A DNA stretch of 64,000 bases from Rheinheimera sp. (lineage in GTDB: Bacteria > Pseudomonadota > Gammaproteobacteria > Enterobacterales > Alteromonadaceae). Shown here one piece after another: positions 51,641-59,723 of this stretch (its first letter is position 1; each line of letters starts with the position of its first letter). The translations under genes and the position numbers were made by a program. The stretch spans positions 278,482 through 342,481 of the forward strand of contig NZ_JBBIQD010000003.1 of assembly GCF_037442525.1 (NCBI RefSeq), given 5' to 3'. The notes below the pieces were generated by a model. It searched no databases, was not told the DNA's origin, and worked only from the letters and a program-made list of their open reading frames with translations.

Positions 51641-52609
51641 TTATTGGCCGGTCAGGCGCTTGCCAAAGGAGATGGCATAAGCGGGGGAACGCATTTGCAA
51701 CACAGGGTCACTGCTGGCCCTGACGCCTGTGCTCAGCACATTGGGGTCAAAATTAATGCCGGTGCAGGCGTCGTCACCCTGACGCTGAATACTCAACCGG
51801 CCAATATCCAGGGTTGTGCGGCTTGCAGGCCAGCTTTGCGACGGGTCAGTCTCGGTATCAGCAGCCTCGCCCAGCACCAGCTGCATAGTCCAGTGCACCG
51901 GGCCTTGCTGCAACCGGGTGGCCAGCCGCTGCTGCAGAAAATCGGTTGGTGGCGCTTTGATTTCTGCATCAGTCAGCCCCTTCACACCATCAACAGGCAC
52001 AAAATGCCAACGCACTTTGTGTTCTTTGCCACTGCTGTCGGTCAGGAAAAAGGTGTGAATACCAAAATAAGAACTGGTGGCGTAACTCCAGGGAGGTGAG
52101 TTTTTTTGCAGGTACTCCGCTTGCGGCAAGGTGGACGGATTGGCCTGACGAAAGGCCTGAACTTTGGCCAAATCGGGCTTGCCGGTAACTGAGTCTGGCA
52201 AGGAACTTTGTAATAAACCTAAAAATACGTCCGGATCTTTGGCGCCAAAGATGGGGGTGTTCAGCATGGCAAAGTGCTGCAGCTCGCCATTGGGGCTTTT
52301 CAGTTGCAACGCCATCCCCCTGGGGCTGCGGCTGTTTTCCGGCGCTTTCGGGTTACCTCCAGCCATGGAAAAACGTGCCGTGACCGGCACAGTCGCGCCA
52401 CTGAGCCAGCTGATTTGGCTGAATGGCTTTGCGGCAGGCAAGGCCGTGAACTCACCGGCAGCACAAAAGCCTTTGGCGTGACCTTTCCGTTGCCCTTTAT
52501 GTTCACCAAACAGCTTGGCAAAGGTATCGATCAGGGCTGTTGGTGTGGCAGTTTCGGCGTTCAGGGCAGGGCTTAACACCAGCAGTATGGCAAGGGTGAG
52601 TGGCTTCAT
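51641..52609 (-). CDS. Exported catalase-related peroxidase (SrpA-like)
   Basis: RKGHAKG distal His; ARFS; RGMAL; FDP; RSPAY proximal Tyr; signal peptide. Confidence 0.88.
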   Translation of the reverse strand: MKPLTLAILLVLSPALNAETATPTALIDTFAKLFGEHKGQRKGHAKGFCAAGEFTALPAAKPFSQISWLSGATVPVTARFSMAGGNPKAPENSRSPRGMALQLKSPNGELQHFAMLNTPIFGAKDPDVFLGLLQSSLPDSVTGKPDLAKVQAFRQANPSTLPQAEYLQKNSPPWSYATSSYFGIHTFFLTDSSGKEHKVRWHFVPVDGVKGLTDAEIKAPPTDFLQQRLATRLQQGPVHWTMQLVLGEAADTETDPSQSWPASRTTLDIGRLSIQRQGDDACTGINFDPNVLSTGVRASSDPVLQMRSPAYAISFGKRLTGQ

Positions 52610-52741: not shown

Positions 52742-53470
52742 TTACATGATGCCGGAGATAGAGCGGACCAGGCCCTGGATCAGCGCAGGCTCAGCTTCAA
52801 CATACTCCATATTGACCTGATTGGCGGTCGACATAATGCGGGTCTGGTAACGTTTCCACTCGGTTTCTTCGGTGGAGCTGACGTTTTTATAACCGCTGTT
52901 GCCCTGCTTCAATGCGGCCTTGTTTTCTTCCACTACAACCACACCTTTTTTCGCCCGCTCAGAGATCTGCAGGTCGGTGATAATGCTGTAATGCACATCT
53001 TTGACTAAAGCGTCAGCCGCCAGACCAATCAAGGCGCCACCTACTGTGGCTGCAGCGCGGCCGCTGCCACTGCCAAACTGGTTACCAATAGCACCACCGA
53101 CTAAAGCACCGCCAAAACCGCCACCAAAGGCTTCATTCTGGGCGCGCAGGTCGGTCTGACCAGCTTGTAACACATTAGCCTGCAACAGGAAGTTGGCTTG
53201 TTCCGGGTCACGCACTACGCGATAACCTTTAGACTGTACCGCTTCAATAATGGCAGGTTCCAGGCTCAACCCCTGTTTGTCTGAGGTGTTACGCACCTGC
53301 ACAAACACTGTGCGTTTGTCATCAGCAACAGGATCTAAAAAGATGGTGTCAGACATTTTGGTCTGCACATCCAGATTCCGTTTGCTGATAGCAGTATGAG
53401 TGGCAGAACAACCAGATAAAGCTAGTGCACCAACCACCAGGGCCGCTGCAGCGAATTTCAATTTTGACAT
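52742..53470 (-). CDS. traT: TraT-family outer-membrane lipoprotein (surface exclusion/complement resistance family)
   Basis: LALSGCSATHTAISKRNLDVQTKMSDTIFLDP, RTVFVQVRNTSDK, LQANVL, ITDLQISER, YQTRIMSTANQVN, collinear with F-type TraT. Confidence 0.9.
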   Translation of the reverse strand: MSKLKFAAAALVVGALALSGCSATHTAISKRNLDVQTKMSDTIFLDPVADDKRTVFVQVRNTSDKQGLSLEPAIIEAVQSKGYRVVRDPEQANFLLQANVLQAGQTDLRAQNEAFGGGFGGALVGGAIGNQFGSGSGRAAATVGGALIGLAADALVKDVHYSIITDLQISERAKKGVVVVEENKAALKQGNSGYKNVSSTEETEWKRYQTRIMSTANQVNMEYVEAEPALIQGLVRSISGIM

Positions 53471-53657
53471 ACATAACTCCATATTGACTGTCATAAAGAC
53501 GGGCCTAGTTTATACGGACAGCCCTTGGCTGAGCTTGTACATCGCTAAAAATATTTGTAACAGCCTGTGCTGTTGCTGCCGTTTCAAGCCAATAGTAGCG
53601 CTAACTGCCTGAACCTATTCTGAATAATTGCTTAGGGCAATTTATCGCCAACACCCA

Positions 53658-53691
53658 ATGTCACCTGATTGTCATACAAAATCTTTAAAGT
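53658..53691 (+). promoter_or_regulatory. Pho-box promoter
   Basis: ATGTCAC-CTGA-TTGTCAT (11-bp period), then exactly 10 bp to the -10 element TAAAGT. Confidence 0.65.
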
Positions 53692-53718: not shown

Positions 53719-54588
53719 TTGACCAGGTATCTGACACCACTGCAGTTCCGTTGGGCTATGACCGGCCTGACCGCTGCCCTGCTGCTTCTGGCGCTGGGCT
53801 GGACTCTGGCGTCTGCGCCCATAGCCTTTGATATTCAGCCCTACAGTTCAGAACGTTGTGCGATTAACAATGGCAATCAGCCACAGAGCCTGACCGTGCT
53901 GGCATCTCCCATAGTAGCCAAGGCATTGTTACCCCTGTTGTGCAGGAGTCCGTTGCTGGCCGCGCATTACCAGCAGGTTGAGCTGCATTGGCCTGCCCTC
54001 AGTGAATTACAGGCCGATGACCTGATCCTGGGCAAATACGCTCTGGTCTGGGCCAGACCTGAAACCCTGAAAGCTGTGTTGCATAACTTTGAGGCCTACT
54101 ACACCGAACTCTGGGCCAACCCGAATTACCGCGTATTCTGGATCAGTCAGTCGGCTATTCCCCGTTGGAATGCCACTTTTGTCCGGCAACAACAGATAGG
54201 CTTGTTGGCGGATCGCAACAGTTACAGCGGTTATCAGTTGCCACTGGCATCGTTGCAGCTGCCGGATCTGAGTTTGTCTGAACTGACTCTCCGTTTTTAT
54301 GCCGACCGACAGGCCTTAACAGATGCCTTTGCTCGGGGTGAAATCAGCCTTTACCCTGCTGTATTACTCAACAAACAAGGGGTGGCCCTGTCAGACACAG
54401 ACCCCCCACCTTATTACGATGTCAGCGGGCAGCCGCTGCCAATGGCCCATCTGCATCCAATGTCCGGCACCAGCAATGGTGGCAGCTTTTACCTGCATAA
54501 CAGCCTGGCTCCACTGAATTGCGAGCTGGCCGGGCTGTTGAAAGAATCCAGGCTCTGGCATGGTGTGATCAAGGTGCCATGCCCATGA
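53719..54588 (+). CDS. PhnD/SsuA-like periplasmic binding-fold protein with N-terminal anchor
   Basis: IGLLADRNSYSGYQLP resembles the PhnD phosphonate/phosphate-binding motif D-x-x-S-x-S-G-Y; GGAG then TTG start. Confidence 0.65.
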   Translation: MTRYLTPLQFRWAMTGLTAALLLLALGWTLASAPIAFDIQPYSSERCAINNGNQPQSLTVLASPIVAKALLPLLCRSPLLAAHYQQVELHWPALSELQADDLILGKYALVWARPETLKAVLHNFEAYYTELWANPNYRVFWISQSAIPRWNATFVRQQQIGLLADRNSYSGYQLPLASLQLPDLSLSELTLRFYADRQALTDAFARGEISLYPAVLLNKQGVALSDTDPPPYYDVSGQPLPMAHLHPMSGTSNGGSFYLHNSLAPLNCELAGLLKESRLWHGVIKVPCP

Positions 54589-55721
54589 GTCTGAGCCGGA
54601 ACAAACACCTGCTGTGGCCCCTGGTTTGGCTGCTGTTGCTTGGACTGATGTTGCTGGGCACCAGCCTGTACAAATCCCGCCAGTTATCCGGGCAGATATC
54701 CAGCCAGTTGCCGGCCGTGGTCGAAGCCACACTGCAAAACAACCATGGCTACATTCGTCAGCTGCTTCCTGCGTTGCTGGCGCAACTGAATCAACAAAGC
54801 ACCAGCCTGGCCTCTGACGAACTGCTGGTGTGTGAGGCGAGTTTTGAAGCCATAGGCGAAGGCCAGCCTGTGGATGCGTCGCTGGTGTGGCAATCCGGTC
54901 TGGTGACTTTTTACGCCCGCTATCAGTCGGTGTGCACCCCGTCGGCCCTCAGCTGGTCTGCCTGTCTGGCGCTGATGCTAACCCTGATTTGGCTTAGCAC
55001 TCAATTGAGCCAGACGGTCCTCAGCCCCAGAGAGCAGCAACTGACTCACAGCCTGCTGCAGAATGCTGTACCTGGCAGCGACACCCAGCAGAAACTGGTG
55101 TTGCAGGACTGTCGTCAGCACTGGCAGGAGCCTCACTGGCAACTCTTTGCGCAGATCAGCCCCCTGCTGCCGAGCCAGCTCTGTCTGGATTTAATCAACC
55201 ATGGCATCCGGCATCAGTTGCACTGCAATGAACCGGACTGGCTGGTGCTGGCCGCCCGGCAACGACCGGATGACCCGGCGGCCATTTGGGCTGTCGCCAC
55301 GGCGGAGCCCCAACTGAAATTCCAGCTGGAGACAGGCCAGCTTTGGGTGCATGGCCTGGAATTGAAACTGAGCCGTACGCCTTTTCTGTATTACTACTGG
55401 TATGCCAGCCGGCGTAAATCTGCGCTGCAGGATGGCTGGGTACTGAACCCCGCCAGTAACAGACCCAGCACCGACTATGCCACCGAATTAACCGCTTTGA
55501 TGCTGCAGGGGCATGGCCATAAAAAAGCACTGCAGGATATTGAAGCCGGAGTCAAAGCCAAAACCCTGGACCAGAACCGCAGCAAATTGCGGGATGAACT
55601 GGAACAACAGCTGGGGCCGGCGCTGGCGCAGCAGTTCCTGTTCGACTGTCATAAAGATGTCAAATCCAGCCGTTCTCATTACAGAATGATGACAACCCCA
55701 GAGCAGATAGAACTCATCTGA
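54585..55721 (+). CDS. Two-TM membrane protein with a C-terminal OmpR/PhoB-like winged-helix domain (putative transmembrane regulator)
   Basis: TM-periplasmic-TM, then LKFQLETGQLWVHGLELKLSRTPFLYYYW and KTLDQNRSKLRDELE (compare RTVDVHIxRLRxKL); ATGA overlap with the upstream gene. Confidence 0.65.
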   Translation: MSLSRNKHLLWPLVWLLLLGLMLLGTSLYKSRQLSGQISSQLPAVVEATLQNNHGYIRQLLPALLAQLNQQSTSLASDELLVCEASFEAIGEGQPVDASLVWQSGLVTFYARYQSVCTPSALSWSACLALMLTLIWLSTQLSQTVLSPREQQLTHSLLQNAVPGSDTQQKLVLQDCRQHWQEPHWQLFAQISPLLPSQLCLDLINHGIRHQLHCNEPDWLVLAARQRPDDPAAIWAVATAEPQLKFQLETGQLWVHGLELKLSRTPFLYYYWYASRRKSALQDGWVLNPASNRPSTDYATELTALMLQGHGHKKALQDIEAGVKAKTLDQNRSKLRDELEQQLGPALAQQFLFDCHKDVKSSRSHYRMMTTPEQIELI

Positions 55722-55736
55722 GCCTGCCTCTTTATA

Positions 55737-55763
55737 GATGTCTCTAAACGCCGCAGAGACATC
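55737..55763. promoter_or_regulatory. Candidate operator (9-bp inverted repeat)
   Basis: GATGTCTCT-N9-AGAGACATC with no U tract. Confidence 0.45.
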
Positions 55764-55764
55764 C

Positions 55765-55798
55765 AATACACAAATCTTTCATCTTCAGTTTTTACCTT
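55765..55798 (+). promoter_or_regulatory. Degenerate Pho-box-like promoter for the TonB-dependent receptor
   Basis: AATACAC-AAAT-CTTTCAT, then 10 bp to TACCTT. Confidence 0.35.
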
Positions 55799-55868
55799 GG
55801 AGCGAGCAAAAACGCAGCCGCCAGACAGGCACTGCACTGTATTCACGCACTATCAGGAAGGTAAATTT

Positions 55869-58553
55869 ATGTCTGCTTTAACGCGACTGCCCCGTACGGG
55901 TCCGGCTCCGTTTCGTCTGAACCGCATTACTTTGGGTTGCCTGTTATTGGCTGCAACCTGTGCAACACCAGTGCTGGCAGATGTCGCCGCTGAAGCTGTT
56001 GAGGCCGCCGTCGCTGAGGCGGGTGGTGAAGCCACCCGGCCAAACGCCAGGGCAAAAGAAAAAGCCGTGGAACGCATCTCTGTGGTCGCAAGCCCCATCC
56101 GCAACAGTCAGGAACAATCCATTGCGCTTCAACGGGAAGCCACTAACGTGGTCAACGTCATTGCTTCAGACGATATTGGCCGCTTTCCGGACCAAACCGC
56201 TGCCGCTGCGTTAGCCCGTTTACCTGCAGTGGCGGTGCAACGCGACCAGGGCCAGGAACGTTATATTCAGATGCGTGGTGCACCTGCGCGCTGGACAGTG
56301 GTGGCCTTTGACGGCGTGAACGTCTTAGGTGCGGAAGAGCGGGTGTTCCGCTTTGACTCCGTACCAGCCAACCTGATGAGTGAAGTGGTGGTGGCCAAAA
56401 CCCTGACCCCACAAATGCCGTCGGAAGCTGTGGCTGGCCGGGTGGATATTAAAACCTTCAGCCCTCTGACCCAACCAGGCTTTGCTGCCGATCTGGATTT
56501 AGGTTTAGGTAAAAACCAGTTGGGGGATGGTGATCAGGAACGTTATGCCGGTCGCCTGTCCTGGTCCGACGGCACTTATGGTGTGATGGTGGCAGGTTCC
56601 ACCTACAGCAATGAACAAACCACGGACAACAACGAAACCAGCTGGGATGCCAATGGCGCCCCCACCGGCTTTGACGTTCGCAGTTACAAAATTACCCGCG
56701 AAACCAACTCTGGCGCCGTGAAGTTTGAGTTTGCCCCCACGGACAACGACTATCTGTCACTGTCCAGCCTCTATACCGAATTTCTCGACCACGAACTGCG
56801 TAACCAGTTTACCTTTGACCTGGATGCGGCTTCCGTGTCCGGCAGCCGTGGCGTCAGCTCAGGTGACCTGGTGGCGGTGCCCGTCACCGCTATGTATCAG
56901 GACGGTGACTACGCCAACTCCACCTGGGTGAACACCCTGGCCGGTGAACATGAACGTGGTGACTGGCTGTGGAACTGGTCGGTCAATTACACCGAAACCG
57001 AAAGCACGGTGAATTTACCTATTATCCGTCGGATGCAAACCAACCCGTCGCAGTTCGCCTCCATGCATTACGACATAAGCAATCCGGCCCTGCCACAAAT
57101 GCAGCTGTACAACACTGTGGTGAATGCGGACCGCAGCATGAGCCGTGGCAGCGCTGTGTCTGCGCTGAACCAAAGCGCTTTTGGCTTTGACGGCGTGATT
57201 ATCTATGACATGGAAAACACCACGGACGCGCTGGGCCTGAAGCTCGACGGTGCCTACAGCTTTAAACATGCCGATGCCGACGCCAGGCTGGAATTTGGTG
57301 TGCAGCTGGATCAACGGGAAGCTCAGTCACCAGGTTCGGCCCAACCTTTTATTTATGTCGGCCCACTGGCGCAAGCGGCAGGTCTTGATTTTGACCTGAA
57401 CCAGTTTAATACCAGCACACCCTGGGACACAGATATGGGCCATGGCTTCAGCGTAAATTACTTTGACAATGCCGGTGCCCGCCAGCTGTTAGACCAGACG
57501 CTGGCCAGCCTGACCGACATGGGCCTGGTAAACCCCGATACCTTCCGTTCTGCCGACAGTGCCTATGAAGTGCAGGAAGATATTCAAAGCGCTTATGCGA
57601 TGAATACCTGGACTTGGGACCAACACCAGGTACTGATGGGTGTACGCGCTGAGCGGGTCAGCCTGGACAGTGCAGGTTTTGTCAAAACAGCCACAACCAC
57701 CGAAGCGCTGCACATGTCACGGGATGACACCAGGCTGTTCCCCAGTATTCACTGGAATATGGATATCACTGAGGATCTGAAATTCCGTTTAGCCGGGGTG
57801 ACAGGGTCCAGCCGCGCCAGCTTCAGTCAGGTGCGCGCTGGCGCTTCTGTCAGCGATACCGAAGAAAGCATCAGTGGCGGTAACCCTTACCTGAAAGATG
57901 AAGAAGCCGTAGGTGTGGATTCGTCGCTGGAATGGTATTTCGCCGACGCCTCTTTGGCTTCAGTCAACCTGTTCCACCGTGAACTGGACCATGTGCTGTT
58001 CAGCTCAGTGACCACTGTTGGCGACAGCCGTTTTGATACCGACGGCATCGACCGCTCAGGGTATGACTACAGCACCACATTAAACGGTGGCAGTGGCCAC
58101 TTAACCGGCCTGGAGCTGACCTACATTCAGCCCTGGGATTTCCTGCCAGAAAGCCTGCAGGGTTTTGGTATGCAGTTTAACTATGCCTTGCTGGACAGCG
58201 AATTCGCCACACCAGAGGGGCGCAAAGTGGCCTTACCCGGCACCTCAGACCGCGTGATAAACAGCACCTTTTTCTATGAAAACTATGGCTGGTCGGTACG
58301 GGTGAATTACCAATGGCGCGACCAGTGGCTGGACGATATCTCCTATGAGGCCACAGGCGACATTTACTGGCAGGACAGCAAAAGAGTGGATTTGTCAGTG
58401 CGTTACCAGCTGACCGACCAGGTTTCCGTGTATGCCGACCTGAACAACATCACCGATGAAGGTGGCGAACGGTTCGAAGGCGATGCCAGCCGCCCTATTG
58501 AAGTGGAAGGTTTTGGCCGTCGTTATATGGCCGGCGTCAAAGTCAGTTTTTAA
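55869..58553 (+). CDS. TonB-dependent receptor (non-siderophore type)
   Basis: TonB box ERISVVA; plug NVIASDDIGRFPDQTAAAALARLP...RDQGQERY; GGNPYL; C-terminal GVKVSF. Confidence 0.93.
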   Translation: MSALTRLPRTGPAPFRLNRITLGCLLLAATCATPVLADVAAEAVEAAVAEAGGEATRPNARAKEKAVERISVVASPIRNSQEQSIALQREATNVVNVIASDDIGRFPDQTAAAALARLPAVAVQRDQGQERYIQMRGAPARWTVVAFDGVNVLGAEERVFRFDSVPANLMSEVVVAKTLTPQMPSEAVAGRVDIKTFSPLTQPGFAADLDLGLGKNQLGDGDQERYAGRLSWSDGTYGVMVAGSTYSNEQTTDNNETSWDANGAPTGFDVRSYKITRETNSGAVKFEFAPTDNDYLSLSSLYTEFLDHELRNQFTFDLDAASVSGSRGVSSGDLVAVPVTAMYQDGDYANSTWVNTLAGEHERGDWLWNWSVNYTETESTVNLPIIRRMQTNPSQFASMHYDISNPALPQMQLYNTVVNADRSMSRGSAVSALNQSAFGFDGVIIYDMENTTDALGLKLDGAYSFKHADADARLEFGVQLDQREAQSPGSAQPFIYVGPLAQAAGLDFDLNQFNTSTPWDTDMGHGFSVNYFDNAGARQLLDQTLASLTDMGLVNPDTFRSADSAYEVQEDIQSAYAMNTWTWDQHQVLMGVRAERVSLDSAGFVKTATTTEALHMSRDDTRLFPSIHWNMDITEDLKFRLAGVTGSSRASFSQVRAGASVSDTEESISGGNPYLKDEEAVGVDSSLEWYFADASLASVNLFHRELDHVLFSSVTTVGDSRFDTDGIDRSGYDYSTTLNGGSGHLTGLELTYIQPWDFLPESLQGFGMQFNYALLDSEFATPEGRKVALPGTSDRVINSTFFYENYGWSVRVNYQWRDQWLDDISYEATGDIYWQDSKRVDLSVRYQLTDQVSVYADLNNITDEGGERFEGDASRPIEVEGFGRRYMAGVKVSF

Positions 58554-58574: not shown

Positions 58575-59723
58575 ATGAACATCAATACAATCACTCAAAC
58601 TCTGCTGCTCGCAGTTTCGGGTTTCAGCTTCAGCCTGCTGGCGGCCAGCAGCGATTTCCAGACCGGTAATGAGCGCATCCTGCAATCCGCAGGGGCGGTC
58701 ATGGTGAAACAGGATAAAGCCCTGTTACCGCAAACTGTGCTGGTCAGTTGGTCTGCCAGCCTGGGCCCTGTCACTTTGTACCGTGCCAGCAGCCCGGATC
58801 AGTCCAGGATGGAACTGGTTGCAGAGAAGCTGAATGGCAACAGTTACCTGTTGCCTGCAAAAGATGCGCAGCGCCAGTATGTGTTTATTAAACCGCAGCA
58901 GCAGGAGGGCTATTGGGTGGCTGAACGTGTATTACCATTACAGGGCGGTGTGAACTTCCGCGATTTGGGTGGTTATAAAGGCGCCGATGGCCGGGCTGTG
59001 GTCTGGGGCAAGCTGTTCCGCTCCGGCAGCATGAGCGACCTGACCGGCGCGGATTACCAGTACCTGAGTGCGCTCGGTATTCGCACCTTCTGTGACTTCC
59101 GCTCCAACGAAGAGCGCGCCGACGAGCCTACCCTGTACAAAGAGTTTGCCCCAGAAGCGCAAATGCTGGTGAAAGACTACTCGATGGCGCAAATGATGAA
59201 CGCCGAGTTTGGCAAAGCCCTGGCCCAGGTGCAGAACCGGGAGCAGGCACTGCAGATGTTCAGTGGTTTTTACCGCAAAGGTGCCACCAGCTATGCCGGT
59301 CAGTTTAAACAGATGTTTGCCCAGCTGCTGGCAGGCAAAGCGCCGCTGGCGGTGAACTGCTCAGCAGGCAAAGACCGCACCGGCATGGCGTCAGCGCTGA
59401 TTCTCACCGCTTTGGGGGTGCCCCGTGATGTGGTGGTCGCCGACTATGCGCTGTCGGAACAAACCTATGACTTTGGCATGCAGGCGCTGAAAAAAATGGC
59501 CAGTGGCGGTGCTAAAGAGCAGTCGCCTCATACCCAAATGTTCCGCCAGTTAAAACCTGAAGTGATTCAGGTGATGATGGGCACAGATCCGGCGTTAATC
59601 ACGGCGTTTTTCCAGCAAATTGACCAGGACTATGGTTCAGTCGAGCACTACCTGCAAAAAGAGCTGGGGCTGACCCCAGCCTCACTGGAAACCCTGCGCT
59701 CGCTCTATCTGACCAAGGTGTAA
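58575..59723 (+). CDS. Exported protein-tyrosine-phosphatase-fold phosphatase (Y_phosphatase3/MptpB-like) with an extra N-terminal domain
   Basis: Signal peptide; GGVNFRDLGGY; LFRSG; DFRSNEE; P-loop NCSAGKDRTG (CX5R); ADYALS. Confidence 0.9.
   Translation: MNINTITQTLLLAVSGFSFSLLAASSDFQTGNERILQSAGAVMVKQDKALLPQTVLVSWSASLGPVTLYRASSPDQSRMELVAEKLNGNSYLLPAKDAQRQYVFIKPQQQEGYWVAERVLPLQGGVNFRDLGGYKGADGRAVVWGKLFRSGSMSDLTGADYQYLSALGIRTFCDFRSNEERADEPTLYKEFAPEAQMLVKDYSMAQMMNAEFGKALAQVQNREQALQMFSGFYRKGATSYAGQFKQMFAQLLAGKAPLAVNCSAGKDRTGMASALILTALGVPRDVVVADYALSEQTYDFGMQALKKMASGGAKEQSPHTQMFRQLKPEVIQVMMGTDPALITAFFQQIDQDYGSVEHYLQKELGLTPASLETLRSLYLTKV

Follow-up and report, generated by a model that had tools for sequence, protein, structure and literature searches.

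A predicted transmembrane regulator with a C-terminal OmpR/PhoB-type winged helix and a candidate palindromic operator in Rheinheimera sp.

Comparison with described membrane-bound regulators

ToxR, CadC and TcpP carry a winged helix at the N-terminus, ahead of a single transmembrane segment (TM). The window analysed here, a stretch of 64,000 nucleotides from Rheinheimera sp. (contig NZ_JBBIQD010000003.1), encodes a 378-aa protein, P0001, in which two TMs precede a C-terminal domain with the predicted fold of an OmpR/PhoB-type winged helix. We consider it reasonably likely that P0001 belongs to a family that has so far had no annotation, that it is a transmembrane transcriptional regulator, or membrane-bound one-component system, and that it acts by the mechanism proposed below. 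In phosphorus shortage it probably acts with its PhnD-like neighbour to turn on the expression of an outer-membrane importer and a phosphatase. The locus consists of four genes on the same strand: a 289-aa open reading frame (ORF) with resemblance to periplasmic binding proteins (PBP-like), P0001, a TonB-dependent receptor and a phosphatase of the Y_phosphatase3 family. Transmembrane transcriptional regulators are few, and those studied (ToxR, TcpP, CadC, TfoS, ChiS) come mostly from pathogens.

Like P0001, the systems ToxR/ToxS, TcpP/TcpH, CadC(/LysP) and VtrA/VtrC have a membrane-anchored winged helix of the OmpR/PhoB type and no receiver, and ToxR-like systems also share with it a periplasmic Cys pair and a co-transcribed periplasmic or membrane partner. 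They differ in that their winged helix is N-terminal, whereas that of P0001 is C-terminal (aa 241-378), and in that one TM leads to a C-terminal periplasmic sensor where P0001 has two TMs and a loop sensor. P0001 is set apart further by a partner that is a PhnD-like binding protein, by a domain to which the Pfam profile PF00486 is blind, and by two insertions that flank helix 2. CadC binds a quasi-palindromic site (PMC5430869), and O1, the candidate operator described below, is likewise palindromic.

A periplasmic sensor between two TMs, followed by a C-terminal cytoplasmic DNA-binding domain, has been described for TfoS and ChiS (PMC11856585, PMC3903286), and 2-TM AraC-type regulators of Saccharophagus degradans also have a C-terminal DNA-binding domain (PMC2386152). 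A preprint on DNA binding by ChiS, a further source for this arrangement, reportedly describes ChiS as being controlled as well by CBP, a periplasmic solute-binding protein (bioRxiv 10.1101/2020.01.10.902320). TfoS and ChiS-CBP of Vibrio cholerae and the Saccharophagus regulators share with P0001 both topology and action from the membrane. Their DNA-binding domains are reportedly AraC-type or, in ChiS, cryptic and specific to that protein, and not OmpR-type; ChiS is said to keep kinase and receiver modules, and the signals are reportedly carbohydrates and not phosphorus compounds. The TM-sensor-TM arrangement with a C-terminal DNA-binding domain is already known, and the new aspect is the OmpR-type domain in that place. 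An earlier reading of this DNA, made by a model from the sequence alone (the sequence-only reading), had called P0001 the inverse of ToxR/CadC and a distinct class of regulator. The inversion stands for the OmpR-type domain, but the claim of a distinct class does not, since TfoS, ChiS and the Saccharophagus proteins also bind DNA through a C-terminal domain.

OmpR/PhoB effector domains share with the P0001 domain the predicted fold, a recognition helix capped by (K/R)T(L/V)D, and the motif R..Y(R) in the wing. Compared with OmpR/PhoB response regulators, P0001 has neither receiver nor phosphorylation, carries insertions of ~14 and ~11 aa, and has a probable palindromic site. AioX-AioS, TorT-TorS and LuxP-LuxQ resemble the locus in combining a periplasmic binding protein as co-sensor with a 2-TM membrane protein, and AioX is a binding protein of the PhnD type. 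In those systems the output is a histidine kinase with a separate response regulator, whereas here the DNA-binding output is apparently on the membrane protein itself. A non-exhaustive literature search turned up no account of an OmpR-type domain so placed, of the P0001 family or of its operator, and no described TonB-receptor/phosphatase Pho module.

Predicted architecture, fold and family of P0001

Hydropathy analysis of P0001 gave two hydrophobic segments, at aa 9-28 and about 120-142, and the two-TM layout was found across the family, with TM1 near residue 10-30 and TM2 near 130-155. Lys and Arg residues (K/R) were counted, with the amino terminus included, in the 114 homologues that have two clear TM segments. 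The N-terminus and the 15 residues past TM2 together held a mean of 5.7 K/R, versus 2.5 in the two loop flanks, and the balance favoured an N-in/C-in orientation in 105 of the 114. The C-terminal domain is predicted from this to be cytoplasmic, in line with the sequence-only reading, and not periplasmic. The loop between the TMs is ~90 aa long and net acidic, and contains C83 and C117, which are Cys in 101 and 94, respectively, of the 133 aligned sequences. Exactly two loop Cys were counted in 88 of the 114 homologues and none in 22; the two Cys therefore appear to come and go as a pair, as a periplasmic disulfide would lead one to expect.

A full-length AlphaFold2 (AF2) model of P0001, built with the 133-sequence alignment, reached a predicted local distance difference test score (pLDDT) of 91.9 and a predicted template modelling score (pTM) of 0.74, and the isolated C-terminal domain reached 93.4 and 0.88. 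The N-terminal part of the model is a long helix (7-51) made up of TM1 and an extension, followed by a loop unit with one helix (57-72) and three strands (81-92, 100-104 and 107-119). After the TM2 helix (121-142) come six short helices (148-238) and then the C-terminal domain, with a three-stranded sheet (244-260), helices 264-279, 296-308, 313-319 and 325-343, and a beta-hairpin (353-368); the helix KTLDQNRSKLRDELE corresponds to 325-343. The antiparallel sheet, three-helix bundle and hairpin wing of the OmpR/PhoB fold are present in the model in that order. Helix 1 carries the motif TPxxYYxWYA, the recognition helix TLDQNRSK and the wing hairpin R..YR, while the ~14-aa insertion GWxxNPxxNRPD and the ~11-aa insertion or extra helix GHxKAIxDL lie on either side of helix 2. 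All the parts named in the sequence-only reading (ORF 54585-55721, two TMs, a ~90-aa loop with two Cys, a linker, and a run of strands with a helix) were recovered where it had placed them, by ORF calling, hydropathy and AF2.

In Foldseek searches against the PDB, DNA-binding domains of the OmpR/PhoB family made up the first 21 matches to the full-length query and the first 31 to the domain query, among them SaeR, AdeR, BaeR, ArlR, OmpR, PhoB, YycF/VicR, GlnR, PhoP, PrrA, KdpE and CosR. CadC ranked 14 with the full-length query and 37 with the domain query. The top scores were a probability of up to 0.97 and a target-normalised TM-score of 0.5-0.6. The likeness to OmpR/PhoB effector domains that the earlier reading had seen in the C-terminus was thus borne out by the top 31 PDB entries, with weak E-values (at least 0.03), and the uniformity of the list argues for an OmpR/PhoB-type fold despite these values. 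The domain has a median isoelectric point of 8.8 (8.3 in genuine OmpR-type domains of the same genome) and a net charge of +2.3. We treat the C-terminal ~140 aa as a divergent OmpR/PhoB-type winged helix according to the predicted fold, and not according to the PF00486 hidden Markov model. At the level of prediction, two conserved TMs, the positive-inside balance and the winged-helix fold place P0001 among the transmembrane transcriptional regulators.

When the source genome was scanned with PF00486 at E ≤ 1e-5, 19 other genes were found and the P0001 gene was not among them. A PF00486 winged helix is present in six long proteins of this genome (L021, L023, L024, L025, L028 and L029; open frames of 539-1093 aa), and in L023 it starts at the first residues of the protein. 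This suggests large one-component regulators, of the CadC/ToxR type or another; OmpR-type factors that are not response regulators are numerous in this organism.

The earlier statement that P0001 lacks a receiver domain held, with no Pfam or NCBIfam match to one and no Response_reg match in P0001 or its homologues; residues 143-240 are instead helical-hairpin repeats. The first and last ~33-aa units of this linker aligned with each other in hhalign (probability 71%, E 3.6e-5). A family profile compared with TAL-effector repeats gave a repeat-summed E of 1e-7 on the linker, and it was this match that drew attention to the ~33-aa repeats of which the linker itself is built. Homology to TAL effectors was rejected, as the score sums matches of 2-7 bits to at least 17 repeats, each with an E of at least 31, and Foldseek returned no TAL effectors. 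The repeats may only transmit the signal, or may dimerise or touch DNA. A resemblance to the winged helix of NE0113-type CARF proteins, suggested in the sequence-only reading, was not upheld: PF09623 (NE0113/CARF-wHTH) matched none of 10 members at E ≤ 10, in the ESM Atlas it appeared only at rank 44 with a score of 0.80, within the range of shuffled sequences, and no CARF protein was among the top 50 Foldseek matches.

P0001 had no match in Pfam or NCBIfam, and a phmmer search against PDB sequences was likewise empty; two NCBI/UniRef records of relatives, both from Rheinheimera, carry the name hypothetical. A word-indexed search found 9 relatives, and a HMMER search of 1.84 billion representatives returned 197 clusters at E ≤ 1e-3, nearly all of 350-420 aa, with the conserved block at aa ~215-378. 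The family is scarce, being present in 4 of 401 sampled Pseudomonadota genomes. Among 185,579 species genomes, 132 loci were found, nearly all in aquatic Gammaproteobacteria; of 80 kept loci, one lies on a short contig of a metagenome-assembled genome labelled Bacteroidia. Carriers include Rheinheimera, Zhongshania, Microbulbifer, Cellvibrionaceae, Haliea, Pseudohongiella, Catenovulum, Pseudoalteromonas and Thalassotalea, and the module is widespread in marine polymer-degrading Gammaproteobacteria. The positions invariant in the 133-sequence alignment all belong to the C-terminal domain (T265, Y269, Y273, N288, G311, G322, Q330, N331, R332, L352 and F353), and K334, R363 and Y366 are present in at least 90% of the family sequences. 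With about 200 protein clusters, this is a candidate for a new Pfam/NCBIfam family; all three members that have a source name bear the label hypothetical.

Conserved DNA motifs, partner and cargo genes

Gibbs sampling of the DNA 3' of the regulator gene gave the palindrome TAGAGAYRTCTCTA, which is flanked by T/A-rich sequence. In a search of 81 loci over the interval -90 to +300 relative to the stop codon of the regulator, it was present with at most two mismatches in 63 and with at most three in 74, while none of 405 shuffled controls contained it with at most two mismatches. It occurs alike with receptor, SurE and PI-PLC cargo, and was not found upstream of the PBP-like gene. The copy in the window, O1, starts 12 bp past the P0001 stop codon and falls inside 55730-55800, the stretch that the sequence-only reading had singled out. 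It is the sole site with at most one mismatch in the window and in the 4.0-Mb genome, where three sites with two mismatches occur elsewhere. About two sites with at most one mismatch are expected per genome by chance, so that the location of O1 is informative and the count is not.

The AGAYRTCT core is the best-conserved part of the site, and operator variants alter both half-sites symmetrically (e.g. TATAGATATCTATA), as expected for dimer binding. The motif LDQNR[SN]K of the recognition helix is near-invariant (78 of 81 loci). A second, weaker copy of the core, O2, lies about 20-21 bp downstream of O1, or two helical turns from its centre; with all loci anchored on the palindrome, this copy, a Pho-box-like direct repeat and, 10 bp further on, a -10-like hexamer appear at fixed spacing. 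The palindrome O1 is likely to be the operator of the regulator, judged from these sequence patterns, and P0001 would bind DNA at this motif, as an activator rather than a repressor. No canonical sigma-70 -35/-10 promoter was found before the cargo gene, which fits an activator-dependent promoter. A 9-bp inverted repeat seen earlier consists of the right half of O1 and the left half of O2; a terminator hairpin was rejected for it, as the conserved unit is a palindrome with no loop and a terminator scan was empty there.

In three Rheinheimera relatives (L037, L040 and L041) the regulator ORF is longer by about 20 codons and the palindrome lies inside the coding sequence, where it encodes D-R-D-I-S about 33 bp before the stop; operator and C-terminal tail occupy one stretch of DNA. 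Two species carry two copies of the module, one of the SurE type and one with receptor and PI-PLC: Pseudoalteromonas shioyasakiensis (L073 and L106) and P. haloplanktis (L077 and L113). The operators of these paralogous modules differ slightly and symmetrically, TAAAGAYATCTCTA versus TATAGATATCTATA, and their recognition helices read KTLDQNRNKIK versus KKLDQNRNRIK; these differences may insulate the modules from each other.

Gene context was taken from ORFs called in 80 loci and searched with newly built profiles. In each of the 77 loci with upstream DNA, the gene just before that of the regulator is the PBP-like one, in the same orientation. The family of this PBP-like protein has an N-terminal hydrophobic segment (signal peptide or anchor), two invariant Cys and the motif S-x-SGY(Q/L)LP, in which S168 is invariant in 10 sequences and the following SGY variable. 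A homologue search with the partner returned one near-identical copy, and orthologues were therefore taken from syntenic loci. PF12974 weakly matched 6 of 10 of these orthologues (best E 2.5e-6); one recorded score was 20.1 bits, under the cut-off of 27 bits. The best PDB match to the partner family profile was the phosphate-binding protein 5ub3 (E 0.015), by way of the SGY motif. PhnD-like identity is plausible for the copy in the window on these sequence matches. The sequence-only reading had named the upstream PhnD-like protein as co-component, which agrees with the synteny (77 of 77) and the weak PF12974 matches; as such, the partner would bind a ligand and contact the regulator.

In about 60 of 81 loci, a gene for a TonB-dependent receptor comes after that of the regulator, and Y_phosphatase3 is next in most loci. 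About 16 loci have a SurE-like phosphatase as cargo, often with a 219-aa protein of no known family. The receptor is accompanied by two PI-PLC-like genes in two Pseudoalteromonas loci and by one in a metagenome locus, and a few loci have other cargo, M28 peptidase among them. To judge from these family assignments, what the cargo genes have in common is a link to phosphoester hydrolysis and uptake. In the 80 loci with called ORFs, the module contains no second conserved regulator gene. The ~219-aa protein that follows the SurE-like phosphatase (L030:10704-11363; homologues in 8 loci) has no Pfam match.

Of 76 loci, 33 have a Pho box that matches at least 11 of 14 positions ahead of the PBP-like gene, versus 3 of 380 shuffles. 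Where the best match is on the + strand, in the window and in four of six further loci listed (L035, L036, L073 and L077), its distance to the start of the ORF is 62-65 bp. At a fixed distance 3' of O1/O2, the anchored alignment, read by eye, shows TT(C/A)AC-N6-TGTCA(T/C) in many loci, and an unanchored scan found Pho boxes of at least 11/14 downstream of the regulator gene in 10 of 81. The source genome encodes a PhoB-like regulator, and canonical Pho boxes precede its phoB and ppk-like genes. Strong Pho boxes in this genome (C6:63996, C6:73011, C6:73210, C6:80813 and C1:798981) stand before ppk-like, phoB, a divergent 891-aa lipoprotein and exported proteins of 311 and 300 aa, and provide a ready Pho regulon list for the organism. 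A further 12/14 match to the consensus, at 55646-55663 inside the 3' end of the regulator ORF and 70 bp before O1, encodes D-C-H-K-D-V; it is probably a coding coincidence, because this peptide is not conserved in the family.

Proposed mechanism, alternatives and feature coordinates

Under phosphate limitation, PhoB would act at the Pho box 53658-53675 and turn on the operon of partner and regulator genes. The PhnD-like protein made from this operon, either exported to the periplasm or anchored there in the membrane, would bind a phosphoryl- or phosphonyl-type ligand and touch the regulator loop, and the signal would pass through TM2 and then the helical-repeat linker, independently of phosphorylation. 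A symmetric winged-helix dimer, or two dimers, would occupy O1/O2 (55733-55764), adjoining the second Pho-like box, and the regulator and PhoB would jointly activate the TonB receptor-phosphatase operon, with the promoter as an AND gate. We give an even chance to the wider proposal that P0001 is the founding member of an undescribed group of 2-TM loop-sensor regulators, with a C-terminal OmpR/PhoB-type winged helix, an obligate PhnD-like co-sensor, a symmetric dimer, tethered to the membrane, that binds the palindrome common to the family, and cooperation with PhoB at a composite promoter, in which the TonB-dependent importer and secreted phosphoesterases are made only if low phosphate coincides with the presence of a specific organophosphorus substrate.

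Several observations weigh against a DNA-binding regulator of this kind. None of the sequence-based methods was significant for a winged helix: PF00486 gave no match at E ≤ 10 in P0001 or 9 homologues, a profile-profile comparison by hhalign with the 19 genuine OmpR-type domains of the same genome gave a probability of 18.5% (E 0.0013), and a PDB profile search gave ArlR at an E of about 0.7. Only at a permissive threshold did hhalign bring the sheet, helices 1-3 and the wing into register, pairing KTLDQNRSKIK with dRTVDVHIRRLRK and R..YRL with RGsGYRF. The Foldseek E-values of 0.03-1 are not significant alone, and the root-mean-square deviations are 5-7 Å, which we attribute to the two insertions. 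The topology is a prediction, and the K/R counts around TM1 of P0001 itself are balanced (2 vs 2), so that the argument for it rests on the family. The partner protein of the window has no Pfam or NCBIfam match, PF12974 included. Finally, the usual targets of OmpR/PhoB domains are direct repeats, classically spaced by 11 bp, and not palindromes, and the direct repeats at the cargo promoter are Pho-like, so that the assignment of motif to protein could be reversed.

Such a reversal would make P0001 a PhoB-like protein that binds the Pho-like repeats at its own and the cargo promoter as a head-to-tail dimer, leaving the palindrome to an unlinked factor. The repeats are the classic type of target and are conserved at both promoters, but they match the canonical PhoB consensus, as at the phoB and ppk-like genes of the source genome, and the recognition helix TLDQNRSK is unlike the RTVDVHIRR of PhoB. 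Moreover, the palindrome is found behind the regulator gene irrespective of the cargo, and the genome contains no further match to it with at most one mismatch; a locus-specific palindrome, in a module with no other conserved regulator, calls for a locus-specific binder. For these reasons the PhoB-like behaviour is rated lower, and we regard it as unlikely. Alternatively, the winged-helix-like fold of P0001 might not bind DNA and might work through other proteins, whether it tethers PhoB or RNA polymerase at the membrane, modulates them there, or signals to another effector. PhoB and OmpR contact RNA polymerase in the region from helix 2 to helix 3, and it is there that P0001 has the enlarged and highly conserved GHxKAIxDL insertion; its marginal sequence similarity to DNA-binding relatives points the same way. 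Against this, the recognition helix and the wing carry the invariant Q330, N331 and R332 together with the nearly invariant K334, R363 and Y366, the domain as a whole is basic, and the palindrome co-occurs with it and has no other candidate binder. Action through protein contacts appears quite improbable. That a TonB-dependent receptor adjoins P0001 in most loci could also point to an inner-membrane accessory of uptake, which might serve the receptor as chaperone, energiser or anti-sigma-like factor, and not to a regulator. The pair is also found with SurE-like cargo and no receptor, however; P0001 has no similarity to the TonB, ExbD and FecR families in Pfam/NCBIfam, and its structure matches are DNA-binding domains only, which makes an accessory role very improbable indeed.

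The transmembrane regulator preferred here would belong to a compact four-gene module, made up of sensor protein, membrane regulator, importer and phosphatase, which lends itself to testing. With a predicted operator and a predicted co-activator, PhoB, the way in which a membrane-tethered protein finds its promoter and activates it could be approached at a local regulon with a single site. If the reading is true, P0001 has an OmpR-type domain that seems to have adapted to a palindrome and to signalling free of phosphorylation, and the module offers a lead on dissolved organic phosphorus compounds that marine bacteria sense and import through TonB receptors.

The coordinates of the features are given in Table 1. 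The ATG of P0001 overlaps the stop codon of the upstream ORF (53719-54588) within ATGA.

Table 1. Features of the P0001 locus, in positions of the window.
Feature	Position	Strand	Basis or remark
Pho-box-like direct repeat	53658..53675	+	11/14 matches to CTGTCAT-N4-CTGTCAT; precedes PBP-like/regulator operon
Candidate -10, TAAAGT	53686-53691	+	10 bp after Pho-box-like repeat 53658..53675
Partner gene, 289 aa, PhnD-like (type-2 periplasmic binding protein-like)	53719..54588	+
Regulator gene P0001, 378 aa	54585..55721	+	stop codon counted in
P0001 TM1, aa 9-28	54609..54668	+	hydropathy; AF2 helix is 7-51
P0001 predicted periplasmic loop domain, aa 29-120	54669..54944	+	small alpha/beta unit, acidic, C83/C117 pair
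P0001 TM2, aa 121-142	54945..55010	+	hydropathy, AF2
P0001 cytoplasmic linker (predicted), aa 143-240, six short helices	55011..55304	+	about three 33-aa helical-hairpin repeats
P0001 divergent OmpR/PhoB-type winged-helix domain, aa 241-378	55305..55718	+	predicted fold
P0001 recognition helix (predicted), aa 325-343, motif TLDQNRSK	55557-55613	+	AF2 model
O1, palindromic candidate operator	55733..55746	none	1 mismatch to TAGAGAYRTCTCTA; Gibbs sampling
O2, weaker second copy of operator core (AGAGACATCC)	55755..55764	none	anchored alignment; sequence reading
Pho-box-like direct repeat, cargo promoter	55765-55782	+	anchored alignment
Candidate -10, TACCTT, cargo promoter	55793-55798	+	10-bp spacer from repeat 55765-55782
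Cargo 1, TonB-dependent receptor (TIGR01782, Xanth-Caul subfamily)	55869..58553	+	NCBIfam/Pfam search
Cargo 2, exported Y_phosphatase3-family phosphatase	58575..59723	+	E 4.6e-67

Two genes on the opposite strand lie upstream of the module. Directly upstream, 52742-53494 (-) encodes a stand-alone chromosomal homologue of TraT (PF05818, E 1.5e-74), and 51641-52609 (-) encodes a short catalase-related protein of 322 aa.

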